Origin: Rickettsiales bacterium
Lineage (GTDB): Bacteria > Pseudomonadota > Alphaproteobacteria > Rickettsiales > SXRF01
Assembly (NCBI GenBank): GCA_040080715.1
Contig: JBEBHV010000001.1
Span: 1 to 62,508, forward strand
Direction: 5' to 3'
Length of the DNA stretch: 62,508 bases
The notes beneath the pieces are model-generated. The model was not told the DNA's origin, did not search any database, and was given only the letters and a program-made list of their open reading frames with translations. Positions 9,591 to 28,374 of this stretch are shown piece after piece (position 1 is the stretch's first letter; the number at the start of each line of letters is the position of its first letter). Position numbers and translations under genes: made by a program.

Positions 9591-10865
9591 TCATTTTTTG
9601 ATGTTTTCACGACGTTCATCCAGATTGATGACCGTCTCATCTTTTCTTTCCAATATGGCACTAATCTTCATGCCAACAGCATCAGAGATTTTCTTGCGAT
9701 GAGAATCAACCAGATGCGAATATCGCTTCGTAGTTTGCGGTGTTAGGTGACCAAGAAGCTGACCAATCTCTTCTAGCGTTAATCCAGCCATAATTGCAAA
9801 CGACGCGAAGGCATGACGCAAATCATGCTTACGCAGATTCGTAATACCAGCACGTTTAAGGACTCGATGCCACATTTCGTTTGGTGGCGAGTGATGTCTT
9901 CCCAGCTTCTCTTTCACGCCTACAAAATAGCCTGGGAACAGGTAAGGATTTCCAACCACACGCTCTAACTTCCCAATCTCTGAAATGGCCAATGGCGATA
10001 AGTTAATTTTCTTCTTCCCCGTTTTGGAATCAGGAAGGTCGAGAGTATTCTCGTCGTAATTGACGTAATCCCATTTTGCAGTCAGCAACTCCCCTTGGCG
10101 TGCACCTGTATAGATGAGCAGACGAAAGAAAATCATCATGCTGCGTTCTTCTGTGCCTTCTTCTTCGCATTGGTTGATGGTTTCTATCAGCTTACGTAAT
10201 TCGCTTTCATTAAGATAGCGGTCGCGCTTGTTCTCTTTGTAGCGTTTGATGCCAAGGCAAGGGTTGCTATTTGGCTGACGAATTCCCCAATCCTCTGCAA
10301 CACTCATCATGTGAGATATACAAGCAAGCGCACGGTTTGCGGTGATCGGTGACTTGTGGAGCTTGCCATGCCATTCCTGAACATCTTTACGCGTAATATC
10401 TTCCATCGCATGATTCCTGAAGTGCGGCATTATCAGAGTTCTTAAAACTTCCTTTTTGCCTGTAACCGTAGAAGGCTTGTTATGATGCACGATGTATTCA
10501 TTAACATATCGCTCCTGAAAGTCCTTGAGTAAGGTCTTGCCTCTTTCCGCTTGGCGCTGATCGGCAGGGTCATCACCAAGTGCGATTTTGGCATAATACT
10601 CTTTTGCGATGACCCTTGCCTGTTCAACAGTAAGAGCGCCATGCTTTCCTATTTTAACGCGCTTCTTCGGCGCATCCCTGCCGCCAGCACCAGAGCGATA
10701 ATCCAAAACATAGATTTTTGATCCACTTGGCTCGATTTTCACCGAGAACCCTGGGATGTCTGAATCGTAAATATGGTATCGCCTATCCAGAATTGGCGCG
10801 TTATCAACAATGGATTTTGTGAGCTTTTGTCTCTTCGGTTGGTTGGTTGTGGTAGTTTCTTCCAT
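9591..10865 (-). CDS. int: tyrosine integrase, P4-type with DUF4102-like N-terminal domain
   Basis: 424 aa; N-terminus LTKSIVDNA...GFSVKIEPSGSKIYVLDYR and C-terminus HDLRHAFASFAI...LLGH...TTKRYSHL (R..HxxR..Y catalytic set). RBS AAGGAA lies 7 nt before the ATG. Confidence 0.9.
   Translation of the reverse strand: MEETTTTNQPKRQKLTKSIVDNAPILDRRYHIYDSDIPGFSVKIEPSGSKIYVLDYRSGAGGRDAPKKRVKIGKHGALTVEQARVIAKEYYAKIALGDDPADQRQAERGKTLLKDFQERYVNEYIVHHNKPSTVTGKKEVLRTLIMPHFRNHAMEDITRKDVQEWHGKLHKSPITANRALACISHMMSVAEDWGIRQPNSNPCLGIKRYKENKRDRYLNESELRKLIETINQCEEEGTEERSMMIFFRLLIYTGARQGELLTAKWDYVNYDENTLDLPDSKTGKKKINLSPLAISEIGKLERVVGNPYLFPGYFVGVKEKLGRHHSPPNEMWHRVLKRAGITNLRKHDLRHAFASFAIMAGLTLEEIGQLLGHLTPQTTKRYSHLVDSHRKKISDAVGMKISAILERKDETVINLDERRENIKK
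10845..10855 (-). promoter_or_regulatory. CTACCACAACC leader motif, copy 1 (here just inside the int ORF, translated as TTTTNQP)
   Basis: Exact 11-mer. Sense-strand context: ATGGAAGAAACTACCACAACCAACCAACCGAAGAGAC. Confidence 0.7.
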
Positions 10866-10885
10866 GTGCAGTTCCTTTTTTATAC

Positions 10886-12577
10886 TTATGCCACCTGCGC
10901 TTCCTGTCCCTGCATTGCTGAGAGGTCATGCACCTTGCCTTCGATGACAGCGTAGGTGTTGCCGGCTTCTTTTGCGGCGAGATCGGGAGCGTTTTCTTCG
11001 GGGCGTTTGGCCATGCAAACCAGCGCGGGGATGCCAGACGAGATGATCATCGACATCAGGCAACCGCGATTTCTGCGGTCATTGATTTCATCCATGTCAT
11101 CAATCACCATGAGGTCGGACTGATCGGCCTTGGCAATGGCGACTTGCAGCAACACGCGCACGGCGTATCGAGCGGAGCGTGACAGCAGGTGATACGGGCG
11201 ATTTCCGCGCCAAGGGTTCAAATCACCGTCCAGCCACACCACTTCGCTGTTGAGTATATTCGATAGTGGTTTCAGCACCTGATCGTTGAAGGCCTTCAGT
11301 TGCTCGTCGAGTTTTGCCTTGCGCACGCCGTTCTGGTGAAGCGCAGCAACCAGTTCCTTTTGGGTCAGGATGGATTCGTAGGTGGCGCGGGCGCGTTGCA
11401 CGGCGTTGAACATATCCAGCCGACGTTCCGCACGTTCCAATGACTTTTTCGCAGAGCCTGAATCCTGCTCGGCAATCGGCACTTCGGTGATGGTTTCCAA
11501 TTTCGTCTTGGCATCCTGCGAGGCTTTAAGCTGATGCTGTGCGACGACCAGTTTTTCCTTCGCTTGATTCACCGCGCTGGCGGCATCTTTCAGTGCCTTA
11601 CCCAATCGATGATATTCTTCCTGTTGCTCCGGTGTTTGCTGCGCGGCGCGCACCAGCTGCTTCTCGCCCAGTAAATCTTCAGAGGCTTGAAGCATCAGCT
11701 CGGTGCCGCACTCGGGGCAGTTTAGCGTATGGCCGTCAGCGGTGGGTATCGCGGCAAGTTGCTGTGAAAGCTGTCGCAGTGAGGCTTCGGCATCGGTCAG
11801 TGCAGTTGTTGCCGTGGTGACCGCCTGAGCGTTTTCATCCAGTTTTGCTGCCTGTGCTTCCAGCTGTGAGCGGTCAAATGCAATCGCACCTTCCGACTTG
11901 AGCGCATCTTCATACGCCTTGTTGCACTCGGCAAAAGCTATCTCTAGCTGTGAACGATCAGCACGCTCCAGCTCAGGTTCCCATGCGGCGGGTCGCCAGT
12001 CACCAGCGGTCGATACATTCCAGCGGGATTCAGCCGTGATGTGCTTCCACTTGCCTGTCAGCTCGGCTTCTTCGCTTTTGGCCGTGGAATGCGCTTCTTC
12101 CCACCCTGATTCCTGAATCTGCTTCCAGATTTCTTCCAGCTTCGGATCAAGGCTTTTGGGAAGTACCAGCTGCAAATCCTTGAGCGTGGGTTCTGCTTTC
12201 AGCAAGCGGATGAAATAGGCCACGCGCTCGGCTGCGGAGAGCTGGAATATCGTGCGAAGCCCTACGGCGAACTCAGATGCCGTGATCGGCTTGCCTTGGC
12301 CGGTGGTTTTGAATTCCGCCAGTGGCCATGAGATTTCAGAGGTTACGCCGTTATGTGACAGCATGACCTTGCCGCTTTTAGCAAGATCATTGACCAGCTG
12401 CTTCGCATCCTTTTTGGCGATGTTTTTAGGCAAAGGCTGCTGCGCGGATGCAAGTGCTACCGCTTGCGCGATGCTGGATTTGCCGTTTTCATTTTCGCCA
12501 ACCAGCAACGCGATGGGCGCAATGTCAAAGCTCGCTTCCTGAACTTTGCGGAAATTGTGAATCGTGACGTTAATCAT
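10886..12577 (-). CDS. SMC/Rad50/SbcC-like ABC ATPase with central coiled coil and CxxC hook
   Basis: 563 aa; Walker A GENENGKSS, long Ala/Glu/Gln-rich coiled coil around NCPECG, signature-like LSRSARYAV and Walker B LMVIDDMDE. Start overlaps the recT stop (TAATG). Confidence 0.7.
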   Translation of the reverse strand: MINVTIHNFRKVQEASFDIAPIALLVGENENGKSSIAQAVALASAQQPLPKNIAKKDAKQLVNDLAKSGKVMLSHNGVTSEISWPLAEFKTTGQGKPITASEFAVGLRTIFQLSAAERVAYFIRLLKAEPTLKDLQLVLPKSLDPKLEEIWKQIQESGWEEAHSTAKSEEAELTGKWKHITAESRWNVSTAGDWRPAAWEPELERADRSQLEIAFAECNKAYEDALKSEGAIAFDRSQLEAQAAKLDENAQAVTTATTALTDAEASLRQLSQQLAAIPTADGHTLNCPECGTELMLQASEDLLGEKQLVRAAQQTPEQQEEYHRLGKALKDAASAVNQAKEKLVVAQHQLKASQDAKTKLETITEVPIAEQDSGSAKKSLERAERRLDMFNAVQRARATYESILTQKELVAALHQNGVRKAKLDEQLKAFNDQVLKPLSNILNSEVVWLDGDLNPWRGNRPYHLLSRSARYAVRVLLQVAIAKADQSDLMVIDDMDEINDRRNRGCLMSMIISSGIPALVCMAKRPEENAPDLAAKEAGNTYAVIEGKVHDLSAMQGQEAQVA

Positions 12578-15468: not shown

Positions 15469-15492
15469 GATGGTTTCCGTTTTGGTTTTGGT

Positions 15493-15503
15493 GGTTGTGG
15501 TAG
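15493..15503 (-). promoter_or_regulatory. CTACCACAACC leader motif, copy 2
   Basis: Sense strand: CTACCACAACCACCAAAACCAAAACGGAAACCATCATG (motif start 35 nt before the ATG at 15468). Confidence 0.7.
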
Positions 15504-15527
15504 TTTTGGTTGCGCAAGGTGTTACTC

Positions 15528-15570
15528 TTTTGCATATAGGCATACTTGCAAAATAAAGGAATACCGTCAA
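15528..15570 (-). promoter_or_regulatory. leftward early promoter candidate (-35 TTGACG 15565-15570, -10 AAGTAT 15542-15547) overlapped by inverted repeat TTTTGCA-N12-TGCAAAA (15528-15553)
   Basis: 17-nt spacing read directly. The inverted repeat shares the TTGCA half-site and the GTTACT flank with the repeats in the repressor/cro intergenic region. Confidence 0.5.
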
Positions 15571-15633: not shown

Positions 15634-16560
15634 TTACTGGCGGATCAGTTCAATTTTAGCCGCACGCTTGATTTTCGATTCCTGGATTGCTCCATCAATC
15701 AGTGAGTGCAGCCGGTAAAATCCCTCACGGTTGCTGCGCTCGATGAGCTTGATGCAGAGCGTTCCATCCTCCAGCTCCACAAAGCAGGTCTGGTCGAGGC
15801 AATCTTCCGTCATGCCTTTGGTTGGCTCATGGTAGTAAAGCGCCATGCCGTCCTTCACAAAGGCGCTGATCGTGGGGCCGCGCAGCTCAATGGCTCTGCC
15901 TCGCTTGGCATCCATTCCATCGGGCACAGGAATTTTGCGCTGCTCACGCTCATTCAGCAGCCAGATCTGATCGCTCGATTTAAGGGATACATAGCCCACC
16001 AGCGGAAGCTCGGATCGGGTGTCGGATTTCGCCTCTAAATGGCTGCGCAATCTCGGCGGAAAGTTAACCTTATGCTTTTCCTTAATTGCTTCCAGCTTCT
16101 TGAGGGGCAAGCCTTTTGGCAGTTTATCGTTAAAGAGGCGGCTCAAATCCCCGTCAGAAATTCCCGCGCTTTTGGCGACATCGGTGCGATAGATGCCCTG
16201 CGCTAATGAAACGTCGGTGATATATTGTTTGCACAGCTTGGCATATTCCGAGATGTCAGCCTTATCGTTTTCCATGCGGTAAAGCATATCGGGAGCAAAA
16301 CTCGGCTCCAACCCATAGGCCTTATAGAGCATGAACACCATGCGGTCGGAAAGAACGCGACTTTCTGCTTTGCTGGCATCCTTGTAGTTATAGAAGAAGT
16401 GGCGCAGGGTATCCTTCCCCACGACGCGCTGCTTTGTCTTCTCAGCATAGAGATTGCACGCCTCCGTCATCTGGGTGAAGTTGTCACCCGACCGCCGCTG
16501 AATTTCCTCCAGCCAGCTTTTTTGCGCGTCCCTTAGTTGCTTTGCAGTCTTCATGCTCAT
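15634..16560 (-). CDS. phage repressor, N-terminal DNA-binding region plus S24 (LexA/CI)-like C-terminal domain
   Basis: 308 aa, divergent from a cro-like gene. C-terminus AIELRGPTISAFVKDGMALYY...LCIKLIER aligns by eye to LexA GxSM...DGD...VKRL. Confidence 0.6.
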   Translation of the reverse strand: MSMKTAKQLRDAQKSWLEEIQRRSGDNFTQMTEACNLYAEKTKQRVVGKDTLRHFFYNYKDASKAESRVLSDRMVFMLYKAYGLEPSFAPDMLYRMENDKADISEYAKLCKQYITDVSLAQGIYRTDVAKSAGISDGDLSRLFNDKLPKGLPLKKLEAIKEKHKVNFPPRLRSHLEAKSDTRSELPLVGYVSLKSSDQIWLLNEREQRKIPVPDGMDAKRGRAIELRGPTISAFVKDGMALYYHEPTKGMTEDCLDQTCFVELEDGTLCIKLIERSNREGFYRLHSLIDGAIQESKIKRAAKIELIRQ

Positions 16561-16587
16561 GTTACTTCCTTGTATGAAGCGCGGGGT

Positions 16588-16741: not shown

Positions 16742-17173
16742 ATGAACGATCTACGCATTCCTAAGAATATCAGTGCCTTGGAGCGCAGGGTGTACGAAAT
16801 CATCCGCCTGCGCGCCAAGTTCGTCGGTGTCAGCATAAATGAGCTGTGTGCGCGCACAGGCGTTGCTCCTTCCACATTCTCGCGGTGGGTGAACGGCCAT
16901 AATAGTGGTCTCATTGCTACCATCGGGCGCATGGATGAAATCCTGACCGAGATGGAAGCGCAAAAATTCCAATCACTCCAGCAGCGCCTGTCAGTGATGG
17001 GGCGAAACCTTGCGGATGTTTGCCTGGAGTTAGACATATCCGCCCTCGATTACGTGCGCTGGGTAAAGCGAGAACTTGATCCCGATTATGAAAAGCTGGC
17101 GGTGTTTGAGTCATTCCTTGAGCGCATCGAAGCCGAGCACAGAAAAGCCTCCCGCCGCAGGAGGAAACCATGA
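16742..17173 (+). CDS. HTH DNA-binding protein (cro/cII-like early regulator)
   Basis: ORF 16715..17173; start moved to MNDLRIPK because the ATG at 16715 lies inside the operator palindrome. HTH-like segment SINELCARTGVAPSTFSRWVNG. Confidence 0.5.
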   Translation: MNDLRIPKNISALERRVYEIIRLRAKFVGVSINELCARTGVAPSTFSRWVNGHNSGLIATIGRMDEILTEMEAQKFQSLQQRLSVMGRNLADVCLELDISALDYVRWVKRELDPDYEKLAVFESFLERIEAEHRKASRRRRKP

Positions 17174-17892: not shown

Positions 17893-17893
17893 C

Positions 17894-18931
17894 ATGCCCT
17901 CACAGCCAGAAAGCAAACGACCTTGGTTCAAATTCTTTCCAACGGATTGGCAAGCCGACTCGTCGCTGCGGATATGCAGCCTTGCCGCGCGCGGTCTCTG
18001 GATCGAGCTGCTGGCACTCATGCACCAGTCGGAACCCTATGGGCATTTGCTCATTCGTGGCAATCCTCCCAATGATGACCAGCTGGCACGCCTAACGGCA
18101 TCCACCCCTGCAAGCATTCGTACCTGCATGAATGAACTCGAACAGGCGGGTGTATTCAGCCGCGATCAGAACGGCGTAATTTTCTCACGGCGCATGGTGC
18201 GCGATTATCTTGTGAGCGAGGAAGGCCGCAAATTTGGCTCAATGGGCGGCAATCCTAAGCTCGGAAAAACACCGAAAGCCAAGGATAACCGTAAGGTTAA
18301 CCCACCCCATAACCCCACGGTTAAGAGGGGGGTTAACCCCCCCGTTATCCCAAAGGATACGCACGGGGTTAAGCCAGACGATAACCCGACATTACTGGGC
18401 GAGGATATCCCACCCGATAAGGGCATGGATAACCCTCACGCGCATGCGTCAGATGCCAGAGGCCAGAGTCCAGAAGCCATAATCCATATTCCAGAATCAG
18501 AAGAGGATGAAATCATCTCTCCTGAAGCTGCGCGTGCGAAACCCGTCGTGGAAGTCATTAAGCTCTTCGATGACTGCATTGCCGAAGTGTACGGCGAGAA
18601 TATGCGAAGACCGTGGCCGCATGGCGATGACTCCGACCATGCACGCGAATTCCTGAAAGCAGGAGCCGACATCGAATTGTGCCGGCAGGTGTTTCTCAAA
18701 CATCTGCATGTGTTCAAACGCAAGGACAAACACCCGATCAGCAGCCTTGCGTACTTCCGAACAGCCATCCCGGATGCTGTCAAAGATCGGGCGTACTACC
18801 ACAACCACCAAACACAGGAGATAACCCATGACCCAGCAAGTCACCACCATCCACCGCGAGAGCCAAGAACTCGAAGCGGCCATGACGCGTTTACTGAAGC
18901 ACTGGTTGAAGTCGTATCTGAACGCAAGTGA
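17894..18931 (+). CDS. DUF1376 (YdaU-like) replication-associated protein
   Basis: Start at MPSQPESKRPWFKFFPTDWQADSSLRICSLAARGLWIELL (DUF1376 signature), RBS GGAGGGA. The central Pro/Asn-rich linker is encoded by the iteron-like repeats. Confidence 0.65.
   Translation: MPSQPESKRPWFKFFPTDWQADSSLRICSLAARGLWIELLALMHQSEPYGHLLIRGNPPNDDQLARLTASTPASIRTCMNELEQAGVFSRDQNGVIFSRRMVRDYLVSEEGRKFGSMGGNPKLGKTPKAKDNRKVNPPHNPTVKRGVNPPVIPKDTHGVKPDDNPTLLGEDIPPDKGMDNPHAHASDARGQSPEAIIHIPESEEDEIISPEAARAKPVVEVIKLFDDCIAEVYGENMRRPWPHGDDSDHAREFLKAGADIELCRQVFLKHLHVFKRKDKHPISSLAYFRTAIPDAVKDRAYYHNHQTQEITHDPASHHHPPREPRTRSGHDAFTEALVEVVSERK
18284..18435. repeat. iteron-like repeats (GATAACC(C) x5-6 and GGTTAA(C/G)CC x3, including the palindrome GGGGTTAACCCC) inside the DUF1376 gene; candidate replication origin
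   Basis: Read directly: GATAACC 18284, CATAACCCC 18308, GGGGGGTTAACCCCCCC 18327-18343, GTTATCC 18344, GATAACCC 18380, GATAA 18416, GATAACCC 18428. An AT-richer stretch follows at about 18478-18520. Confidence 0.5.
18796..18806 (+). promoter_or_regulatory. CTACCACAACC leader motif, copy 3 (the only + strand copy, in front of a + strand gene)
   Basis: CTACCACAACCACCAAACACAGGAGATAACCCATG; motif start is 32 nt before the ATG at 18828. Confidence 0.7.
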
Positions 18932-20725: not shown

Positions 20726-21748
20726 TTACGCAGCTTCCATTTCATCCGCTACCACGTCTTCGGCTTCGGCATTGCCACGCTGAACACCAAGCTCAACAAT
20801 GACGCGTTGATGCGCAGCAGGTGCACGCAGCTTCTTTTCGGCAAGCGTCAGCACGGAACCGATGACACGGATCTTCTCAGCAATCGTCAGCGCGCGGGCG
20901 GGGTCAATCTTTTTCAGGATGTCCATCTCACCGTCCTTGTTAAAGAAACGACTGACAGTGCCAGCCATGCTCTCGATATAGGTTTCGAGATTGCGCAGGG
21001 CTTTGACTTCCTCAGCTGAAAGGCGGGCTTCTGGAAACAGATCAACCTGATTGGCAGTGTCGATAAACCCTTGCGCCACGGCTGCGAGAGAATTGGTATC
21101 GACGCGGCCATCACGGATCATGCGCCAGAACGTATCCTGAAATTCAGTCGGCACTTTCGACATGTAGTAGGCCTGGGTCGGAGTCAGGAAATCATCTTCC
21201 AGCAGCACCTGATATTCTTCCTTCAGGTTCAAAAGCGTCAGGCGATCCAGAATGCGATGCGGCTGGCTGATGCCAATCCGCGCTGCAAGCTGCTCAACGC
21301 TGTAATCAAAATCCTGCATCGCCTTGCGGAAGGCTCTGGCTTCTTCGAGCGGTGTAATATCCTGCCGCTGAAGGTTTTCGATAATCATCTGGCAGGTGAG
21401 CGCCTCATCATCCATCTTTTTGATGATGACAGGCACTTCCTTCAGCTCAAGCAGTTGGCATGCGCGGAAGCGACGCTCACCTGCAACGATCATGAAACGG
21501 CCTTCACCATCGGGGCGCACAACAATCGGGTTCATCAAGCCCTGCACACGGATGGATGCGGCAAGCTCGCGCAGTTTGGATTCCTCGAAAATCTTTCTGG
21601 CTTGCTCGGCGTTTGGATAGACGCGCTCGAGTGCGATCATCTGCATGCCTTCTTCGGCAACAGGTGCTTTTGGTTTTGCAATCGGCTTGCGCTTTACAGC
21701 AACAGGTTTTTTCTTGGCTGCAACGCGTTTTTTGGTGTCTTTGGTCAT
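20726..21748 (-). CDS. parB: ParB/Spo0J/KorB-like protein with N-terminal ParB domain and HTH; no cognate ParA
   Basis: 340 aa; box II FMIVAGERRFRA, LTCQMIIENLQRQDITPLEEA and HTH SVEQLAARIGISQPHI-like segment; Lys-rich N-terminal tail. Confidence 0.85.
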   Translation of the reverse strand: MTKDTKKRVAAKKKPVAVKRKPIAKPKAPVAEEGMQMIALERVYPNAEQARKIFEESKLRELAASIRVQGLMNPIVVRPDGEGRFMIVAGERRFRACQLLELKEVPVIIKKMDDEALTCQMIIENLQRQDITPLEEARAFRKAMQDFDYSVEQLAARIGISQPHRILDRLTLLNLKEEYQVLLEDDFLTPTQAYYMSKVPTEFQDTFWRMIRDGRVDTNSLAAVAQGFIDTANQVDLFPEARLSAEEVKALRNLETYIESMAGTVSRFFNKDGEMDILKKIDPARALTIAEKIRVIGSVLTLAEKKLRAPAAHQRVIVELGVQRGNAEAEDVVADEMEAA

Positions 21749-21769
21749 AACTTTCTCCTTGTGGTTGGT

Positions 21770-21780
21770 GGTTGTGGTAG
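21770..21780 (-). promoter_or_regulatory. CTACCACAACC leader motif, copy 4 (promoter-less 36-nt intercistronic gap before parB)
   Basis: CTACCACAACCACCAACCACAAGGAGAAAGTTATG. Confidence 0.7.
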
Positions 21781-21784
21781 TGGG

Positions 21785-22045
21785 TTAATTAGTTTCTGCT
21801 GCTTGCATCGCCTGGATGTCAGACAGCGATTCTTTTGCGGCATGGAACAAAGCCGCGTCTTTTGGCAGGTCGCTGAGAGCAGAACAAATCAGTGACGTGA
21901 CTTCGTCATGTGATTCAAGCCGCTTGAGTTCGTCTTGCAAAAGCCGAATGGCAAATTCCATGTCACTCTTGAGTTGCTTGCGTGCATCTTCAACACGGCG
22001 TTCGGCTTTTCTAACTAAGAGGCGGCTGACGAGATTATCGGTCAT
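21785..22045 (-). CDS. hypothetical coiled-coil protein (86 aa)
   Basis: RBS AAGGA; first gene behind promoter cassette 1. Confidence 0.5.
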   Translation of the reverse strand: MTDNLVSRLLVRKAERRVEDARKQLKSDMEFAIRLLQDELKRLESHDEVTSLICSALSDLPKDAALFHAAKESLSDIQAMQAAETN

Positions 22046-22084
22046 GGCTGAATCCTTTTTGTGTTGTGTTTCAATTTCTTATAA

Positions 22085-22126
22085 GGAAATCCAATCACAC
22101 GGACACTTTGCCGTACACAAAAATCG
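22085..22126 (-). promoter_or_regulatory. repeated promoter cassette, copy 1
   Basis: Sense strand: CGATTTTTGTGTACGGCAAAGTGTCCGTGTGATTGGATTTCC; aligns with the copies at 24.9, 26.9 and 28.4 kb. Confidence 0.55.
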
Positions 22127-22172
22127 ACCATCACAGCGAAAATAAATCTTTATGTTTCAATGAGATAACGCT

Positions 22173-22200
22173 TTCCAGAATTCTGAATCTTGAGTATAAT
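22173..22200 (+). promoter_or_regulatory. rightward promoter candidate with consensus -10 (TTCCAG-N16-TATAAT)
   Basis: Read directly. Points into the structured element and then antisense into the DUF488 gene. Confidence 0.35.
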
Positions 22201-22202
22201 CT

Positions 22203-22270
22203 GCGGCGACCTGTAGAGGATGACGGGGCACCACCCTGTCAGCTAGGTGCAACTCCTAGTAGCCGCTCCA
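22203..22270. ncRNA. structured RNA candidate: closing stem plus two hairpins (tRNA-like three-way junction ending GCCGC-T-CCA on the + strand)
   Basis: GCGGCGA/TAGCCGC closing stem (6 of 7 pairs), hairpin TGACGGGG-CACCA-CCCTGTCA, hairpin CTAGG-TGCAACT-CCTAG. 68 nt, no D arm, no canonical anticodon loop. Confidence 0.25.
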
Positions 22271-22271
22271 A

Positions 22272-22691
22272 CTATTCATCAAAGAGCGATGCCTGAGCTG
22301 GAAGCCGCTTGCGCTTCTTTGGTATCTCAAACTTCATCTCAGGCACAACAATGCCCAGTTCGGATTCAAACCAATCCGCAACAATGCGGCGATGACACCA
22401 TTCTTCAGGATTGCACACGGGGTCTTTTTCCCAGCACAGCAACACAGGCTCATGCGGGAAAGCCAGCTCATGCAGTTTGTCATGCACTGCTTGCGGATCG
22501 AGCGGCTTCAGAATTTCTGATTCATACCGCTTACGATAGGCATCGTAACTGGAATTGTAGGGCGGTTCGTTAAACCATTTGCCCGGAGCGAGAGCACGGA
22601 AGATTCTAAAACCTCCCATGCCTCTTGGAGCAAATCGTGCGATGGAAACTCGGCCTGGGCCGGTGTAAAGAAAGAAGCTGCTGGTCTGCAT
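22272..22691 (-). CDS. DUF488 family protein
   Basis: 139 aa; PVLLCWEKDP...CHRRIVADW resembles the DUF488 LLC(F/W)E...CHR signature (from memory). Confidence 0.6.
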   Translation of the reverse strand: MQTSSFFLYTGPGRVSIARFAPRGMGGFRIFRALAPGKWFNEPPYNSSYDAYRKRYESEILKPLDPQAVHDKLHELAFPHEPVLLCWEKDPVCNPEEWCHRRIVADWFESELGIVVPEMKFEIPKKRKRLPAQASLFDE

Positions 22692-22712
22692 GTGTCCTCG
22701 GTTCGTTCGGTT

Positions 22713-22723
22713 GGTTGTGGTAG
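22713..22723 (-). promoter_or_regulatory. CTACCACAACC leader motif, copy 5
   Basis: CTACCACAACCAACCGAACGAACCGAGGACACATG. Confidence 0.7.
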
Positions 22724-22772
22724 CAGCAGCATGTTAGCAGCATTGCACAAGAAAGCACGCTTTTTCAGCACC

Positions 22773-23201
22773 TTAACCACTCTTTTTTGATAGCACCCTT
22801 GCCAACAAAACATGGTCGTCATCGTCGGAACTAATGATGCCAAAATACGGGCTGTCAGGATGTTCCTGTGCGATAATCAGCTGATCGAAAGACACATAGC
22901 GCAACTTTTCATTGCCACCTGCAACCACATTCACAATCTGGCGCGGTTCGAGATGTTCGCACAGCTCCTTGGCAAAGGCGTTCAAATCCACCTCTACCAA
23001 TTCGTCTTCTTCCTCGTCCATGATGCGCGGATAGGCGGAGGGGTATTGCTCGTACCCGCCGAAAGAAACATGCCGCTCTTCATTGCGCACGAATAGCTCG
23101 ATGTCCTGCCCGAAATGATACTGGGCAAACCATTCCTTGAATTTCTCCACGTCTTTGACCTGGAACACATTGGAGCATACCGCTCCATACATATCAGCCA
23201 T
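22773..23201 (-). CDS. small strongly acidic hypothetical protein (142 aa)
   Basis: RBS AGGAGG. Hand count gives about 28 Asp/Glu against 13 Lys/Arg, with runs MDEEEDELVEVD and SSDDDDH. Confidence 0.55.
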   Translation of the reverse strand: MADMYGAVCSNVFQVKDVEKFKEWFAQYHFGQDIELFVRNEERHVSFGGYEQYPSAYPRIMDEEEDELVEVDLNAFAKELCEHLEPRQIVNVVAGGNEKLRYVSFDQLIIAQEHPDSPYFGIISSDDDDHVLLARVLSKKSG

Positions 23202-23218
23202 GATAATCCTCCTAAATG

Positions 23219-23782
23219 TTAGCTGTGCATGTCGAGAAATACGATGTAGCGCTGCTTGCCGTCGCTCGTAGCGGTCATGTCGGTCACGCCTGTCTGGTCA
23301 AACTGCCAATCGTAAAACTCTGGCAGGTCATTACCCTTCGCTAGGGAGCGGCGTGCACCGAGCAACTCATAGAGCTGTTTGATGTTGCGGCTGGCTGCCC
23401 ATAATTCATGAAGCTCGCCGTTCTCAACGTCGAAGTGCATCAGGTGATTGGCGACCGTACTGATGCCTTCCTTGAAGTCGCAGATCGAAGCCCAAGGCTG
23501 GTATTCCAGCGTGACTGGGTCTTTCACCAGCCACTGAACATACGACACAGTACGCGCAAAATATGAGCCTTCCTTCGGGATTTCCTCCAGCTCGTCCAGA
23601 AAGGATAATCCCCAGCGGCCACCATCGTGGTTTTCTATGTCGTCCTGACCATCTTCAGAGGCAACGCCGCCGATAGAACGCCAGTTGTTTTCATTACCCC
23701 AGTTGCTAATTTCGGATTCCACTTCGTTGGCGGCATCACTGGCTGAATCGGCTTTGACGATGATAAAATGCAGATTGTGCAT
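23219..23782 (-). CDS. acidic hypothetical protein (187 aa)
   Basis: RBS GGAGGG; tightly packed (2-nt gap) with the upstream gene. Confidence 0.55.
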   Translation of the reverse strand: MHNLHFIIVKADSASDAANEVESEISNWGNENNWRSIGGVASEDGQDDIENHDGGRWGLSFLDELEEIPKEGSYFARTVSYVQWLVKDPVTLEYQPWASICDFKEGISTVANHLMHFDVENGELHELWAASRNIKQLYELLGARRSLAKGNDLPEFYDWQFDQTGVTDMTATSDGKQRYIVFLDMHS

Positions 23783-23784
23783 GA

Positions 23785-24198
23785 TTAACCCTCCACCGTT
23801 TCAGCCAGCGTGTGGCCTTGTGATTTTAGGTTGCGAAGCCATTGGCTAAGGAAGGAGGCCTGATCTGCGGCCTCGCGCTTATTGCCTTTGCCGTCTTCAT
23901 CCATCGCCTCGCGGTAGTACAACGCATTCTGGAATGACATGGGCATTGCCGCTTTGTGCTTCAGATCAACGCGGATGCGCATATCGGGGTCAGGCACTAA
24001 ATCGCCGTTCTGCTTGTAGTAATGCGCTATCGCAATATCCATGCTGTTGCCTGATCGGGTCAGCACTTCAAAGCTCAAATCCATATAGCCTTTGGCTTTG
24101 AGCTTGCGGTAGCAGCCGCCGCGCAAATTCTCTAAATCGGGAACCAGCTCGATCAGGCGTTTGTAATTATTCATGCACAGTTTAACAAAATCACTCAT
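23785..24198 (-). CDS. hypothetical protein, paralog of 24487..24873 (DUF1249/DUF6908-like pattern, from memory)
   Basis: 137 aa; LCMNNYKRLIELVPDL...DIAIAHYYKQNGDLVPDPDMRIRVDLKHKAAMP...FLSQWLRNL. Confidence 0.55.
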   Translation of the reverse strand: MSDFVKLCMNNYKRLIELVPDLENLRGGCYRKLKAKGYMDLSFEVLTRSGNSMDIAIAHYYKQNGDLVPDPDMRIRVDLKHKAAMPMSFQNALYYREAMDEDGKGNKREAADQASFLSQWLRNLKSQGHTLAETVEG

Positions 24199-24467
24199 GG
24201 GTAACTCCTTTGGGTGTTGATTATGAAGGTTGCAAACTCATCTCCGGCGAAGTGGAAGCGATTGCCGCTACGCCTTAGAATCTTTTCGTCATCGAGCCAC
24301 ACGCGGTGCGGATCATCGGGGTCACAAAACACCAGATGCACCGTGCCTTCCGCCGATTCAGCGACGTTTGCCAGTGGGCCAATGGTCTGAATCACGCCGA
24401 CATACGTGCCGTTTTCGGTGATTTCAGGGCGCGCTAATCCGCGCACCAAATGCAGGTACATCGCCAT
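24195..24467 (-). CDS. hypothetical protein (90 aa)
   Basis: 4-nt ATGA overlap with the downstream gene indicates translational coupling. Confidence 0.5.
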   Translation of the reverse strand: MAMYLHLVRGLARPEITENGTYVGVIQTIGPLANVAESAEGTVHLVFCDPDDPHRVWLDDEKILRRSGNRFHFAGDEFATFIINTQRSYP

Positions 24468-24486
24468 TGTCTTGCTCGTGTGTCGG

Positions 24487-24873
24487 TTAGTGAACGGTTG
24501 CTGCGGATGCGGAAAGCATCTCCAGCCATGCGTTCAGCCGGTTGGTCAGCACCGTCTGGATGCCCTGATCGATGCCCTTGTTCGGCACGCGGGTATGCGT
24601 CGTACCCTTGCAGCGAAACCAGATGGATTCAGGAATGGCCTTGCGGTGATACATATCCACCTTCACCAGCATTTTATGGTCAGGCGAGAGCTTGCCCTGC
24701 TGCTCGGTGTTAAAGGCAATCTCTACTCGCATGACGGATGCGCCACGATGTTTCACCGTGATGCTGCCGGGCATCGGGCTTGCTGGAATCAGGAGGCTTT
24801 CTTTGGCCTGACGTTCGGGCAGCAACGGATCGAGGTTTAATAGTTGTTCATAATGCTCTGCATGAATGCACAT
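24487..24873 (-). CDS. hypothetical protein, paralog of 23785..24198
   Basis: Start set at MCIHAEHYEQLLNLDPLLP (ATG 24871-24873) behind leader copy 6. ...RVEIAFNTEQQGKLSPDHKMLVKVDMYHRKAIP...RLNAWLEML aligns with the paralog. Confidence 0.55.
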   Translation of the reverse strand: MCIHAEHYEQLLNLDPLLPERQAKESLLIPASPMPGSITVKHRGASVMRVEIAFNTEQQGKLSPDHKMLVKVDMYHRKAIPESIWFRCKGTTHTRVPNKGIDQGIQTVLTNRLNAWLEMLSASAATVH

Positions 24874-24899
24874 AACGGTTTCTCCTTGGTGGTTTGGTT

Positions 24900-24910
24900 G
24901 GTTGTGGTAG
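24900..24910 (-). promoter_or_regulatory. CTACCACAACC leader motif, copy 6
   Basis: CTACCACAACCAACCAAACCACCAAGGAGAAACCGTTATG. Confidence 0.7.
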
Positions 24911-24912
24911 TA

Positions 24913-24954
24913 GGAAAATCCTAGCTTTTTTGACTTTACCGTCCACAAAAATCG
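24913..24954 (-). promoter_or_regulatory. repeated promoter cassette, copy 2
   Basis: Sense strand: CGATTTTTGTGGACGGTAAAGTCAAAAAAGCTAGGATTTTCC. With its leader it is about 65 bp near-identical to the 26.9-kb copy. Confidence 0.6.
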
Positions 24955-24976
24955 ACAATAAAACCAATAAAATCAG

Positions 24977-25213
24977 CTAGTTATTTGCAAGGTTGCTATC
25001 GTTCCACTGCGCGTCGCAATAGGCGTTCAGCAAATCCTTGTGCATTCCCGAAAACGACTCGACTGGAAACACATGGATGTTGGCGATTGCGTCAGGCGGT
25101 AGCTCGCTTCCTTCGATGTCTAAGTCGAGCACGGTGACTTTGAGCGCAGCAGGATCGTTGGCATAGATTTCTCGGACGACACCGCCTTCAACAACAATGG
25201 CAAGATGGTTCAT
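24977..25213 (-). CDS. hypothetical protein (78 aa)
   Basis: RBS AAAGGA; last gene of the operon that starts at 26.9 kb. Confidence 0.5.
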   Translation of the reverse strand: MNHLAIVVEGGVVREIYANDPAALKVTVLDLDIEGSELPPDAIANIHVFPVESFSGMHKDLLNAYCDAQWNDSNLANN

Positions 25214-25225
25214 GGCTTATCCTTT

Positions 25226-25687
25226 CTAAAACAGGGTGAGTTGTGGGGTTTTGTAGGCGCGCAGCTCTTCGATCATGCGCTTGGCATCGCTTCGGTTCTT
25301 TTCGCCTGAGCAGCTGTTTCGTTCCTGAGCGATGGTTGCAAACGAGCGGGTAATCTCTTCTGCGATTGCCGCCAGTGCGTCTTCACGGTTCAGGAAGGCT
25401 TGGCGCTCCCATACGGAAGGGGCAGAACCTGCGCCGCCATAGCCATAATCGTAGCTGCTGCTGGCTGCCCACCAGCCTTTGCCTGTCTGGATGATGCGTG
25501 CCTCGGCATTGCATGAGCCGACTTTCGCCAGCGTGATGGTTTCATACCCCATGAACACGCCGTGCCGATTGGCTTTGCCTTGCCAGAGTGCTTCTGCGTC
25601 ATGCACCGCTTCTTCTGCCAGATACCAGCGGTCACCATGCTTGAGCTTGATAGCCTCTAGCAGCTCTGTCAGATCGACGATCTGCAT
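25226..25687 (-). CDS. hypothetical protein (153 aa)
   Basis: RBS AGGAGG; overlaps the upstream gene by 19 nt. Confidence 0.55.
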   Translation of the reverse strand: MQIVDLTELLEAIKLKHGDRWYLAEEAVHDAEALWQGKANRHGVFMGYETITLAKVGSCNAEARIIQTGKGWWAASSSYDYGYGGAGSAPSVWERQAFLNREDALAAIAEEITRSFATIAQERNSCSGEKNRSDAKRMIEELRAYKTPQLTLF

Positions 25688-26169
25688 ACAGCCTCCTGCG
25701 TGCGGGTGCGGGTTGAGCTGAATGCGCCAATCCTGCGCTGAATCTCGGCAATTTCCCGTTCAAGCTCGGTGCGATTGGTGAAGCTCTGATTCAGCTGTTC
25801 ATCGCTATATTGCGTTCCAAAATGCAGCACACAGGCGGCGCGGCAATATCGCTCGATGACTCCCAGATAATAGGCTTTGTCATATTTGCCGAACCAGTCT
25901 TCGGGTGACATGGTATGTCCCTGAAGACCATGCTTCAGGCAGTGCTCCCTTAAAGCATCGTGGAAAAAGTAAAACGGTATGGCGAACTCGCAGTCCTCTT
26001 CATACCAGCCTTCAGGATTCCTAAATGGCGGCGGGATTTGTTCATTGAGCGTGAGGGCGAGCTTAATGCCGCCATGACTGGCGGTGTGGTAAAAATCAAC
26101 ACCCGGCATGTAGCGATTGCCACCTTGTGAGCGTCCCCACGGTGTCCATATTCCTTCGTGCGTCATCAT
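25669..26169 (-). CDS. hypothetical protein (TPWG...HGG motif; DUF7007-like, from memory)
   Basis: 166 aa; IWTPWGRSQGG...FYHTASHGGIKL; RBS GGAGAT. Confidence 0.5.
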   Translation of the reverse strand: MMTHEGIWTPWGRSQGGNRYMPGVDFYHTASHGGIKLALTLNEQIPPPFRNPEGWYEEDCEFAIPFYFFHDALREHCLKHGLQGHTMSPEDWFGKYDKAYYLGVIERYCRAACVLHFGTQYSDEQLNQSFTNRTELEREIAEIQRRIGAFSSTRTRTQEAVCRSSI

Positions 26170-26244
26170 AATGTATCTCCATCTGGGCGTGCGTCATCGC
26201 CCGCTGCTTTCACAGCGGGTCGAAATTCACAGCGCGGTTAAGGG

Positions 26245-26835
26245 TTAAACGGCTTCGGCCAAGAACTCGGCGCGTTCGGCTTCGTAGCGGGCAAGCTGCT
26301 CATCAATCTGCTTAAGCTGCTGGCGGAATTGATAGCTATCCGCTGGCGTGCCGTCATTTTTGGTAACGCCAACAAGAGCGCGTGCTTCGCCCAACATGCG
26401 ATACAGCTCGTATTCAATATCCAGCTCCTGATGACTGGAGCAGAAATCATAATCGCCGATGACAGCCTCTACACGTCCCGTCATGGCAAAGGCGGCATCG
26501 TGGATATTGGCTTCTTCCTCGCCATTGTCATCGATGCGCGGCAGTGTCACCTGAACTTCAACCCCTTCAGGCACTGGATGCTGGCTGATAAAATAGCCAA
26601 GCCGATCTGCGAAGTGATAGCCGCTGGTGATGTAATCACCATCGTCACCGCTGCATAGCGTCCAGATGGTATTTTGCGGCTGGGCAACGACATAATCATG
26701 CTCGTCGCCGTAGGTTTCAAACATCGTGCCGTATCCGTTGCCCCAGTCAAAGGATGCAGATTCTTTCAGATGATTTTTGACTGGCTGGAATAAGGCGACA
26801 AAGGCTTCTTCCTGAAGTTCGATTAAAGTGGTCAT
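26245..26835 (-). CDS. acidic hypothetical protein (196 aa)
   Basis: First gene behind promoter cassette 3 and leader copy 7; RBS GGAGAC. Confidence 0.55.
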   Translation of the reverse strand: MTTLIELQEEAFVALFQPVKNHLKESASFDWGNGYGTMFETYGDEHDYVVAQPQNTIWTLCSGDDGDYITSGYHFADRLGYFISQHPVPEGVEVQVTLPRIDDNGEEEANIHDAAFAMTGRVEAVIGDYDFCSSHQELDIEYELYRMLGEARALVGVTKNDGTPADSYQFRQQLKQIDEQLARYEAERAEFLAEAV

Positions 26836-26859
26836 AACAAGTCTCCGTTTGGTTTGGTT

Positions 26860-26870
26860 GGTTGTGGTAG
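26860..26870 (-). promoter_or_regulatory. CTACCACAACC leader motif, copy 7
   Basis: CTACCACAACCAACCAAACCAAACGGAGACTTGTTATG. Confidence 0.7.
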
Positions 26871-26876
26871 TAGTTT

Positions 26877-26918
26877 GAAAATCCTAGCTTTTTTGACTTT
26901 ACAGTCAACAAGAAAACG
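26877..26918 (-). promoter_or_regulatory. repeated promoter cassette, copy 3 (TTGACT-N16-TAGGAT; contains the palindrome TTGACT-N4-AGTCAA)
   Basis: Sense strand: CGTTTTCTTGTTGACTGTAAAGTCAAAAAAGCTAGGATTTTC. Confidence 0.6.
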
Positions 26919-26935
26919 CCATATAAAACAAGTAT

Positions 26936-27340
26936 TTATGCAGCGTTCGGGGCGTATTTCTCCCATTTCCAGATCGCGTTGCTGCATGTGACTTCCACGC
27001 CGATGGATTCCAGATGGCGGCAGCGTTCGGCAAGCTCTATGGCGGATCGTTTGCCGCGCTCGGTGAAGGCAAAATCATTATCGTAATGCTCGACCTCGCG
27101 GCCTTTCCAGAACACGTAACCCACATGGTCAATCGTCAGGTGTTCGATGCCATGAAACCACGGCTTCTCATAACCGGCGCGGCAACGGGCAAGCAGTGCC
27201 ATGATGGCCGCTTCGATCTTCTCGCTCGGCTTGGCATTGACAGCGATTTCAACCAGCCGCAAATGCTCAGGCGATAGGTCGTCACCGTCATGGGTACGCC
27301 TCAGTATTTCAATGCAATTCTCGTGGATGGATGCAGACAT
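26936..27340 (-). CDS. hypothetical protein (134 aa)
   Basis: RBS AAGGAG 7 nt before the ATG. Confidence 0.55.
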   Translation of the reverse strand: MSASIHENCIEILRRTHDGDDLSPEHLRLVEIAVNAKPSEKIEAAIMALLARCRAGYEKPWFHGIEHLTIDHVGYVFWKGREVEHYDNDFAFTERGKRSAIELAERCRHLESIGVEVTCSNAIWKWEKYAPNAA

Positions 27341-27406
27341 TTTAAGCTCCTTTCATGCGCTCATGGTTGCAGACTTGATAAAACTATTGATAATCGGGGG
27401 CGCATC

Positions 27407-27485
27407 TGGGGTGGTACCCTGATGCCGCCTCTGACCGTCTCCGACGTTTGGAGGTTGTGGTAGTACGCTTTGGGGTGGTACCCTG
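27407..27485. repeat. 15-bp perfect direct repeat TGGGGTGGTACCCTG (27407-27421 and 27471-27485) flanking leader copy 8
   Basis: Read directly; 64-bp period; each copy contains GGTACC. Confidence 0.75.
27453..27463 (-). promoter_or_regulatory. CTACCACAACC leader motif, copy 8 (atypical, about 120 nt from the next start codon)
   Basis: CTACCACAACCTCCAAACGTCGGAGAC. Confidence 0.6.
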
Positions 27486-27494
27486 GCGTAGGGT

Positions 27495-27516
27495 GACGGA
27501 GGGGCAACCCTCCGTC
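27495..27516. other. perfect 9-bp GC-rich hairpin GACGGAGGG-GCAA-CCCTCCGTC without a U tract
   Basis: Read directly, 34 nt downstream of the stop of the HsdM-like gene. Confidence 0.6.
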
Positions 27517-27549
27517 ATTTACTTGCTGCAATGCCTTCATCACTTCCTC

Positions 27550-28347
27550 CTAAAACTGAAATGCGAATTGCTGGGTACTTCTGGCCTGTACCGCTTGTGG
27601 CACTGGAACTTCCGCCTGTGACTTCAGCGGCACAATGACGTTTGGCAGAATCTCGGCAGGAACGTGGTGCTTGGTCATCAGCTTCCATTGCGGCGTAGCG
27701 CGGCACTCCCATACTTCGGCTCTTAGCGTATCTCCGTGGATGACGTTTCCCGCAAGCCCAAGCATGGAAAGCTGGATATACGCCATGTTGAAGCACACGC
27801 GGTTAATATCGATTGCCTGAAACAGCATCGTGTATCGCGGATCATGCCCGTGCCGGCGGATGACATTGGCGGCTTCGATGACCATGACACCCGCGCCACA
27901 TGTCGGCTCTTGCAAGGTGATATAGCCTTTCGACTGGATAGTATCCCCACAGCCCTGCATGCTTAATTCCGCCATCATCCGCGCCATGTGCGTGGGTGTG
28001 AAGTATTCGCCGTTGTGTTTATTGTGGATTTCCAAATCCATATATTGCTGACCCAGAAAGTCCTCACCTGTTGACCCCAGTGCCATGTGCGTAAACGCAT
28101 AGAGCTTACTCACCAGATCCAGTTCTTCCTTATCGAAGCGTTTGATGGTGGACATGTAGAGCTCTTCTATACGCTCATAATCATCGTCACGCTCAAGCAG
28201 CCCGCGATGGTACGGCTCCTGATGCACAACACAGGCGGTGATGTCGATGAAGTCACGAAACGCGTCGTGCCAATTCCTGCGGTATGTGAAGCGATCAAAC
28301 AGTTTTCTAAATTCTTTGCCTAAGTCGATTGGTTCTTTCTGTCTCAT
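27550..28347 (-). CDS. HsdM/N6_Mtase-like protein that ends before catalytic motif IV (NPPF/Y)
   Basis: Start set at MRQKEP (ATG 28345-28347) behind leader copy 9. Motif X GEYFTP, motif I LQEPTCGAGVM and the GDTL segment are present; the protein stops about 45 aa later with no (N/D)PP(F/Y). Confidence 0.6.
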   Translation of the reverse strand: MRQKEPIDLGKEFRKLFDRFTYRRNWHDAFRDFIDITACVVHQEPYHRGLLERDDDYERIEELYMSTIKRFDKEELDLVSKLYAFTHMALGSTGEDFLGQQYMDLEIHNKHNGEYFTPTHMARMMAELSMQGCGDTIQSKGYITLQEPTCGAGVMVIEAANVIRRHGHDPRYTMLFQAIDINRVCFNMAYIQLSMLGLAGNVIHGDTLRAEVWECRATPQWKLMTKHHVPAEILPNVIVPLKSQAEVPVPQAVQARSTQQFAFQF

Positions 28348-28363
28348 CGTCTGGTTCGGTAGT

Positions 28364-28374
28364 GGGTGTGGTAG
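28364..28374 (-). promoter_or_regulatory. leader motif variant CTACCACACCC, copy 9
   Basis: CTACCACACCCACTACCGAACCAGACGATG. Confidence 0.55.

Follow-up and report, generated by a model that had tools for sequence, protein, structure and literature searches.

What a phage gains by placing one exact short sequence at the starts of many of its genes, and whether that sequence is read as DNA or as RNA, is the question raised by a prophage of ~48 kb in a Rickettsiales bacterium (contig JBEBHV010000001.1, positions 1 to 62,508; this whole stretch of 62,508 nucleotides (nt) is called the window). The sequence is the 11-mer CTACCACAACC, here called the tag, and it recurs among the non-structural genes of the prophage. 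We find that the feature is real, specific and conserved, a new sequence of an already known but unexplained type of phage element. To judge from its sequence context, the tag probably marks non-structural messages for joint control of protein synthesis; our leading, still tentative reading is that it is a start-associated leader tag acting in the mRNA, as a C/A-type enhancer that may at the same time be a docking site for a partner.

A search of both strands finds eight exact copies and one copy with a single mismatch (CTACCACACCC), with the numbers, coordinates and strands that a preliminary description of this DNA had given (Table 1); the near-identical prophage L121 has the exact 11-mer at the site of the mismatched copy. 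In 100 dinucleotide shuffles of the window, matches with at most one mismatch averaged 0.56 and peaked at 3, and no shuffle reached the observed 9. The tag also heads the frequency ranking of 10-, 11- and 12-mers for the entire 62.5 kb of the window, and k-mer ranking returns it as the top 10-12-mer of the related prophage contigs L121, L122 and L123. A position-weight scan trained on 26 distinct sites finds sites that score 16.5-33 bits or none, with no weaker copies. Chance or low complexity was rejected as an explanation on the strength of the shuffles, the k-mer ranking and the position-weight scan.

All copies fall between 10.8 and 28.4 kb, within the non-structural part of the prophage. 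Exact search and position-weight scan alike find no copy in the late genes (28.4-57.6 kb) or in the ~14 kb of host flanks of the window, so that the earlier claim of their absence there extends to degenerate copies. All nine are sense-oriented to the adjacent gene and seven start 27-37 nt before its start codon, as had been described and as the measured distances bear out. The integrase copy likewise lies where it was said to lie, just past the ATG, and is translated as TTTT(NQP). One start codon had to be revised, that of the N6-adenine methylase gene, which is at 28347 and not at 28401.

Beyond its bare occurrence, the tag has sharp limits and a fixed relation to promoters. With sites anchored on the motif, information content climbs from ~0.4 to 2 bits at the first C and drops after the last C; the preceding base is a purine in 29 of 30 sites (A in 26), A or T stands at +12, and there is no other flanking conservation. 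The 11-mer that was first taken as the conserved unit is therefore its invariant core, the full unit, R-CTACCACAACC-W, being 13 nt long, with a loosely conserved CCAAA after it. Of 11 promoter-proximal copies from four lineages, 9 have a -10 hexamer (TAGAAT, TATAAT, TAGGAT or TAACAT) that stops exactly 7 nt short of the tag and is matched, 16 nt upstream, by a -35 hexamer, for example TGGACG or TTGACT; the six linker bases vary between copies while the spacing itself is constant. Sigma-70 promoters usually start transcription 7 nt past the -10 hexamer, so the conserved purine is the predicted +1 and the RNA is predicted to begin A-CUACCACAACC. The predicted transcription start never cuts the motif, and the promoter stands as close to it as is possible without truncation. 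Copies that have no promoter are found 4 nt past a stop codon before parB, in the 3' end of the open reading frame (ORF) that overlaps the 275-amino-acid (aa) gene, and within coding sequence.

The relation to translation starts is equally regular. Among 29 distinct sites from the four lineages, 21 begin at a distance of 27-37 nt before an ATG, and each of these ATGs is served by a GGAG or GAGG Shine-Dalgarno (SD) sequence of its own, placed at a loose 8-15 nt after the tag. Five sites lie 7-10 nt after the ATG (integrase, plus a helix-turn-helix (HTH) regulator in lineages 2 and 3), and the next ATG is 78-123 nt away from four copies that belong to a structured intergenic element. All in all, 26 of the 29 are inside the -39..+19 range of the ribosome footprint (PMC5900567). 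The sense strand of the tag is G-free. The tract from tag to SD, earlier described as C/A-only, is so in five to six leaders and contains G in the leaders at 22713, 27453 and 28364. Partition-function folding gives the tag a mean probability of being unpaired of 0.85 versus 0.61 for the surrounding 101 nt, the exception being the intergenic-element copies of lineages 2-4 (0.36-0.52).

The preliminary description had proposed counting the motif in related prophages. Relatives retrieved with ParB, the 128-aa 'MCIH' protein and the integrase from Rickettsiales/Alphaproteobacteria metagenome-assembled genomes (MAGs), IMG/VR and metagenomes form a syntenic prophage family, in which four lineages carry the tag, sense-oriented and tied to start codons: lineage 1 (the window, L121, L264), lineage 2 (L122, L123, L179, L260, L262), lineage 3 (L259 and L187, with 9 copies) and lineage 4 (the fragment L268). 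Prophages of lineages 1-3 have 8-9 copies each, and proteins of the other tag-bearing lineages are ~50-70% identical to those of the window. The same places are tagged throughout, namely the genes for the acidic protein, MCIH, the DUF488 protein, ParB, the first ORF of the recombination operon and the integrase, together with the intergenic element. In 33 orthologous leader pairs, the 11-mer has an identity of 0.992, while the flanking 29 nt reach 0.57 on the upstream and 0.43 on the downstream side, and only three single-base variants were seen (A9C, A9G and C11T). Between integrases 80-89% identical, the four Thr codons ACT ACC ACA ACC are invariant while neighbouring codons vary, the in-frame tag recurring with identical synonymous sites in lineages 2 and 3. 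In these two lineages the HTH regulator has the tag as an MRTTTTN insertion, which the window orthologue (MNDLRIPKN) lacks.

Sense orientation is strict in every lineage, three independent strand flips included, and the minus-strand HTH-gene copies in L122, L254 and L187 obey it as well. The tag goes with the gene and not with the promoter: that of parB is preceded by a full promoter in lineage 2 and is intercistronic in lineages 1 and 3. The MCIH leaders of lineages 2, 3 and 4 retain both the tag and its 7-nt spacing to the -10 hexamer. By these sequence comparisons, the 12-13-nt tag is under purifying selection at the nucleotide level across four lineages. As a separate observation, the MAG JAIEPI01 holds contigs from two tag-bearing lineages (L273 and L275, with integrases 99% and 90% identical to that of the window), which could be a double lysogeny or a mixed population bin.

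A sister clade of the family (L124, L125/L261, L126, L266) has the same genes, promoters of the same type (TGGACGG...CCGTGTGnTTGGAT) and ~40-nt leaders that are equally G-poor. K-mer ranking finds in it neither a shared tag nor an alternative repeated or dispersed asymmetric motif. Its integrase gene begins ATG GAA ACC ACT ATA ATC AAC CAG, a degenerate counterpart of the tag, and L126 has a single perfect 13-mer, at the YYHN-coding position before a 279-aa gene (orthologous to the window's copy at 18796). The hosts of the tagged and tag-less clades are related, as host genes common to the window and to one MAG of the sister clade are 72-87% identical in amino acids. The clade amounts to a natural control, with the same promoters and genes and no tag, and the contrast makes both the RNA-versus-DNA question and the search for a partner directly testable with reporters. 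The early promoters common to the two groups form a family of their own (-35 TGGACG/TGTACG, an inverted repeat ACGG-N6-8-CCGT in the spacer, -10 TTGGAT/TAGGAT) that looks operator-bearing; one window copy drives an 86-aa gene plus parB and has no tag at its start (Table 1). The idea that the tag is simply a promoter part was rejected, since the sister clade has the same -35/-10 arrangement without it, as does this window promoter.

How might such an element work? The preliminary description had proposed an RNA-level element, and its orientation, its placement, the avoidance of truncation by predicted transcription start sites (TSSs), its G-free and unpaired character and its nucleotide-level conservation speak for that proposal; on the other side, no partner has been found and a stoperator-type DNA site stands as a rival. 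We infer action in RNA because promoters sit as near as possible to the motif yet never truncate it, because the tag is tolerated on either side of the ATG within the ribosome footprint, because its distance from the SD varies, a latitude also reported for ACA enhancers (PMC3879156), because it is G-free and predicted to be unpaired, and because it is invariant across regulators ~50% identical, contrary to what a co-evolving DNA-binding repressor would lead one to expect. R-CUACCACAACC-W would then be the first transcribed bases of most early and accessory transcripts, and would also be embedded before some internal cistrons, as an unpaired C/A module without G at the 5' border of the ribosome-binding region, or, in the integrase and HTH regulator genes, just within the coding region. 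There it may keep the initiation region open as a C/A ('ACA'-type) translational enhancer and serve as the common docking site of one conserved trans-acting partner. We add the docking function, with the GcvB regulon as its model, because a generic enhancer needs no 11 fixed bases, and docking by one such partner is our proposed cause of the letter-by-letter conservation. A candidate partner would be a small RNA (sRNA) with a G/U-rich seed (GGUUGUGGUAG; the seed complement to be expected is GGTTGTGGTAG, with A/G allowed opposite U) or an RNA-binding protein, and through it the entire non-structural set would be turned on or off jointly, by way of translation or of stability.

Several points weigh against this reading. 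Four independent early start regions (15634-16560, 16745-17173, 21785-22045 and 25669-26169) are untagged, and the intergenic-element copies lie 78-123 nt from the next ATG and are partly base-paired in lineages 2-4. The TSSs are predicted from hexamer spacing alone, and the 7-nt spacing to the -10 hexamer is equally expected of an operator at +2..+12. The enhancer half of the proposal does not require 11 invariant bases. As to the partner, no conserved complement of the tag of at least 8 nt was found in the window or in related phage DNA, no tag-specific phage protein was detected between the terminase and integrase genes, and the tag-less sister clade infects related hosts, which is awkward for a host-encoded partner. 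A more far-reaching version, which we consider possible but rather doubtful, makes the tag a virus-specific 'address label' on mRNA, with one conserved partner reading the 12-13 nt at the 5' end of each independently translated non-structural message and thereby turning all early/lysogeny genes on or off post-transcriptionally; the ribosome itself might fill this role, or a G/U-rich sRNA of the host, or a decoy RNA from the intergenic element.

Chief among the alternatives, though in our judgement unlikely, is a stoperator-like DNA site, at which a monomeric repressor bound to the asymmetric 13 bp would silence the non-structural genes in the lysogen, blocking initiation at +2..+12 of early promoters and elongation at the intercistronic copies. 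The Cluster A stoperators (L5 gp71) are more than 20 asymmetric 13-bp sites, oriented with transcription and spread over the whole genome, late genes included (PMC9283540), and the tag fits that description as an asymmetric 13-mer in one orientation to transcription, found at promoters and in short intergenic gaps. Its position is fixed against the predicted TSS in 9 of 11 promoters, the intergenic element clusters three TACCAC-type boxes that might serve as a nucleation site, and the control region encodes HTH proteins (16745-17173, HTH_23; 15634-16560, a weak Cro/C1 HTH). These proteins, however, have generic HTH matches only, and no sequence match to solved stoperator-type repressors. Moreover, the 11-mer is invariant though the candidate repressors are ~50% identical between tag-bearing lineages, no closer to one another than to those of the tag-less clade, whereas the specificities of stoperators co-vary with repressors; nor has the tag-less clade any alternative dispersed asymmetric motif. 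Two lineages with the same tag in JAIEPI01 are disfavoured for an immunity operator. The confinement of the tag to early genes, with a late operon free of sites, differs from the genome-wide distribution of the L5 sites, and a duplex site needs neither a G-free sense strand nor avoidance of overlap with the -10 hexamer and TSS: stoperators act on DNA, whereas the composition and placement of the tag point to RNA.

The remaining rivals fare worse. It seems to us improbable that the tag is a loading signal for an elongation or antitermination factor that makes RNA polymerase termination-resistant across the early operons. Such a signal would be recognised in an ops/RfaH-like manner, from the non-template DNA strand of a paused complex, or in a boxA/nut- or put-like manner, from nascent RNA. 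The format is right: the ops element (GGCGGTAGnnTG), a 12-nt exact element read by RfaH in the leaders of horizontally acquired operons, resembles the tag in length, exactness, sense orientation and position in transcribed leaders directly after the promoters of mobile genes, and a hairpin without a U-tract precedes the intergenic-element copy. The tag is nevertheless unrelated in sequence to ops and unlike boxA. Several copies per operon mark gene starts and not operon starts (before internal cistrons and in the operon's last gene, the integrase), strong SD sequences are present, and an RNA polymerase at +2..+12 is scarcely past promoter escape. Pfam scans of ~60 prophage proteins, many ORFs being hitless, gave no NusG paralogue or other NusG/RfaH-like (NGN/KOW), Q-like or sigma-like protein. 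That result, with no RNA polymerase gene detected either, also bears on a still less probable idea, that the tag is the core of a phage-specific promoter for a phage sigma-like factor or RNA polymerase, with the start a few bases downstream in the C/A tract. Exact, short, gene-oriented motifs before many phage genes are most often promoters, as with the minimal element TATAAATA of T4 late genes; 27-37 nt to the ATG leaves a plausible 10-20-nt leader with an SD, and copies in gaps without a sigma-70 promoter (21770, 18796) would be accounted for. Against it, nine copies stand exactly 7 nt past good sigma-70 -10 hexamers with -35 partners, and the motif is past a well-supported ATG, with no alternative downstream start, in the integrase gene of three lineages (the Pfam arm-binding domain of the integrase begins at residue 15) and in the HTH regulator gene of two. 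Least probable of all is that the tag has no regulatory role, being a relic of a duplicated promoter-leader cassette or 'linker' homology for the exchange of accessory cassettes, for which the promoter-early stem-loop cassettes of T4-type phages offer a comparison. Several promoter-tag cassettes are clearly paralogous (GATTTTTGTGGACGGT...TAGGAT/TAGAAT, 7 nt, tag), gene content between tags varies among lineages and the phage encodes RecT and an exonuclease. Yet neutral relics would decay like the flanks (43-57% identity, versus 99% in the 11-mer), the tag is kept within coding sequence with synonymous sites invariant, differences in gene content do not match tag-delimited cassettes, and 11 bp of homology leaves unexplained why the orientation is strictly sense and the distance to start codons fixed. 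Two narrower candidates were also rejected: integrase arm-type sites, because the copies are spread over 17.5 kb and oriented by gene, and Thr-codon attenuation, because most copies have no upstream start codon.

The searches for a partner and for the tag elsewhere can be told together. There is no tag in the 10-kb host flanks of L270 and L271, and none in phage contigs with the same capsid module, 582 kb in total; in a genome scan of the collection, among the matches listed, all those in relevant MAGs are prophage copies. Matches set aside as irrelevant comprise the chance singletons of a first collection scan with 16-18-mers, more than 120 IMG/VR matches to extended patterns that are a TTTTTK coding stretch of an abundant gut phage, many genome matches to such patterns that are antisense to the GGCGSA coding sequence of aquaporin Z, and an unrelated six-contig IMG/VR family with one copy each. 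Rfam reports nothing at gathering threshold in the window, and noise only at E<=10 around the intergenic element. We know of no convincing complement to the tag in the 3' tail of 16S rRNA or in E. coli 16S. Between TerL and int, the sole gene part confined to tag-bearing lineages is the N-domain of the acidic protein (26245-26835), which has 8 homologues, located in leading regions of plasmids and integrative and conjugative elements by TrwC relaxase, ArdC and methylases; the protein was rejected as the tag's partner, its homologues elsewhere occurring without the tag. With neither an antisense partner found in the available phage DNA nor a tag-specific phage protein found between terminase and integrase genes, a partner would be host-encoded or lie in unsampled DNA.

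The intergenic element deserves separate mention. All four tag-bearing lineages have it and the tag-less clade does not; it lies after the methylase gene in the window and 79-86 nt before that gene in the other lineages. The element is more stably folded than expected (minimum-free-energy z = -4.4), with one compensatory pair (CCTCC/GGAGG to CCTTC/GAAGG), and combines two hairpins, the second of which overlaps the 3' end of the tag, with repeated boxes (Table 1). One possibility is that it yields a decoy RNA.

That no described element matches the tag, as was first stated, is true of its sequence; the phenomenon has precedents in the start-associated sequences (SAS) and Quhwah repeats of actinobacteriophages and in GcvB/ACA sites. 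The SAS of Cluster K mycobacteriophages are 13 bp long, occur in about 10-19 copies per genome in the non-structural half and in one orientation, are absent from the host and have no known function (PMC3203893); repeats of this type are also found in Cluster EF Microbacterium phages, and the Cluster EC phage Quhwah has 18-bp repeats 22-30 bp upstream of start codons (PMC7302621). For SAS, it has been suggested that an RNA or protein encoded by host or phage acts as partner (PMC3203893, PMC7302621). The tag is similarly short, asymmetric, tied to gene starts in one orientation, limited to non-structural genes and placed before different gene families across lineages, as SAS are across subclusters; its number is comparable, each prophage of lineages 1-3 having the 13-nt unit 8-9 times, and its 27-37 nt to the start codon are close to the Quhwah distance. 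SAS, in contrast, incorporate the SD core (GGGATAGGAGCCC, AGGAG) and precede the start codon by 3-7 bp, whereas the tag is G-free and stands 8-15 nt ahead of a GGAG/GAGG that is separate from it. The tag differs further in marking predicted transcript 5' ends, in being able to lie inside an ORF, in having no inverted repeat beside it of the kind seen in ESAS (extended SAS), and in belonging to prophages of Gram-negative alphaproteobacterial MAGs. Strictly speaking it is no SAS, since it neither contains nor replaces the SD.

C/A-rich sites bound by the seed of the sRNA GcvB in enterobacterial and Pasteurella mRNAs have the consensus CACAACAT (PMC5900567), whose core, CACAAC, is also the core of the tag. 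Relative to the ribosome footprint, such sites may be upstream, inside or just past it; they define a regulon through pairing with a single sRNA seed, and they both enhance translation and give the repressor its docking site (PMC5900567, PMC3879156). ACA enhancers tolerate loose SD spacing (PMC3879156); prophages encode C/A-rich mimics of these sites and an anti-sRNA, AgvB (PMC4104026). The tag shares the G-free unstructured C/A composition, the flexible SD spacing and, in 26 of 29 sites, the placement in the footprint. It differs in being longer (11-13 nt) and far more exact and in marking phage rather than host genes; GcvB is gammaproteobacterial whereas the hosts here are labelled Alphaproteobacteria/Rickettsiales, and no complementary sRNA was found in the available phage DNA or by Rfam. 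The tag string itself appears in the searched literature in unrelated primers only.

SAS and ESAS, as gene-start motifs in the non-structural half of temperate phages, have been known since 2011 without a mechanism. The present tag is an independent invention in Gram-negative alphaproteobacterial prophages, with a cleaner anatomy: it is separate from the SD, G-free, placed at the predicted +2 of transcripts and tolerated on either side of the ATG. Should it be a docking site, it would define a compact post-transcriptional regulon of early, recombination, partition, anti-defence and integration genes, and offer synthetic biology a portable 5'-untranslated-region module; should the 'address label' version be true, it would amount to a phage-wide translational regulon defined by an exact tag and suggest a mechanism for the start-associated sequences of actinobacteriophages. 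Were the tag stoperator-like instead, that unusual mode of repression would extend beyond actinobacteriophages.

Table 1. Copies of the tag and other features of the window, with distances from motif start to start codon
Feature	Position	Strand	Distance to start codon	Context
Tag in integrase gene	10845..10855	-	starts 10 nt past A of ATG 10865	codons 4-7, ACT ACC ACA ACC = TTTT; gene 9591-10865
Tag before first small ORF of recombination operon	15493..15503	-	35 nt before ATG 15468	38 nt upstream, promoter-like TTGACG (15565-15570), 17 nt, AAGTAT (15542-15547)
Tag before 275-aa gene of rightward early/replication operon	18796..18806	+	32 nt before ATG 18828	sole plus-strand copy; inside 3' end of overlapping upstream ORF, read YYHN
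Tag before parB	21770..21780	-	32 nt before ATG 21748	36-nt intercistronic gap; 4 nt past upstream stop
Tag before DUF488 protein gene	22713..22723	-	32 nt before ATG 22691	-10-like TAACAT (22731-22736) ending 7 nt upstream
Tag before 128-aa 'MCIH' protein gene	24900..24910	-	37 nt before ATG 24873	-35 TGGACG (24940-24945); -10 TAGGAT (24918-24923) ending 7 nt upstream
Tag before 196-aa acidic protein gene	26860..26870	-	35 nt before ATG 26835	promoter TTGACT (26903-26908) / TAGGAT (26881-26886)
Tag in structured intergenic element	27453-27463	-	next ATG 123 nt away	
One-mismatch tag CTACCACACCC before N6-adenine methylase gene	28364..28374	-	27 nt before ATG 28347	-10-like TTGGAT (28383-28388) / GATTAT (28380-28385)
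Structured intergenic element	27380..27520	-		holds the tag at 27453-27463
Hairpin 1 of the element	27495-27516			GACGGAGGG..CCCTCCGTC; GC hairpin without U-tract
Boxes of the element	27471-27482 and 27407-27418			two GGTACCACCCCA (TACCAC-type)
Hairpin 2 of the element	27439-27454			CCTCC..GGAG
Untagged early promoter	22089-22117	-		before 86-aa gene and parB
Overlapping ORFs	17870-18931 and 18828-19655	+		overlap of 104 nt
tRNA-Leu(CAA)-like 3' part	9346-9440	-		beside integrase gene
T-arm-like fragment	9305-9321			near integrase gene
TauE/SafE-family transporter gene	47365-48141	-		amid tail-gene block

The prophage around the tags is arranged in blocks. A leftward recombination operon encodes a Zn-ribbon protein, a PD-(D/E)XK nuclease, RecT, an SMC-like ATPase and the integrase. 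It is followed by a divergent control region at ~16.6 kb, with a 308-aa protein encoded leftward and a 142-aa HTH_23 protein rightward; a rightward early/replication operon comes next. A leftward block from 28.4 to 20.7 kb encodes the N6-adenine methylase, DUF7007, DUF6908, DUF488 and ParB proteins, and from 28.4 kb to ~57.6 kb the genes run rightward, with a DAM-like methylase/GNAT fusion, terminase, portal (DUF4055), MuF, capsid and tail genes. No similar annotated phages were found by blastn, and PHROGs gave nothing further. In the early operon, the tag at 18796 is within the overlap of two ORFs, and relatives keep both frames together with the SD and ATG of the second; the label DUF1376 that had been given to the first is not reproduced by Pfam. 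The gene set at 20726-29817 resembles the 'leading-region'/anti-defence clusters of plasmids (ParB, DUF488, DUF6908, DUF7007, two methylase types) and includes a fusion of the DAM-like methylase with a phage GNAT domain. The gene for this fusion is co-oriented with the methylase block and tagged in lineages 2 and 3 (L122 2140-2170); in the window it is inverted (28402-28445, plus strand) and untagged, the methylase bearing the one-mismatch copy instead, so that the breakpoint of the inversion adjoins a tag.

The ends of the prophage show some further features. No tRNA was found in the window, where ARAGORN calls no complete one; beside the integrase gene there is a tRNA-Leu(CAA)-like 3' part with anticodon loop, long variable arm, T arm and ACCA, and a second T-arm-like fragment is near it. 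No direct repeat of at least 12 nt pairs the tRNA-like region with the right end of the prophage. The left flank (1-9500) has 42-45% GC and many genes without SD. This flank is not beside the 100%-identical integrase in contig CAZAGG010000010.1 (L270), and in L277 the homologues of the two window flanks (7933-9090 and 59495-62416) both lie on one side of the integrase, so that either integration contexts differ or the region has been rearranged. Within the tail-gene block, the gene for a TauE/SafE-family membrane transporter lies on the opposite strand and is moron-like in appearance.

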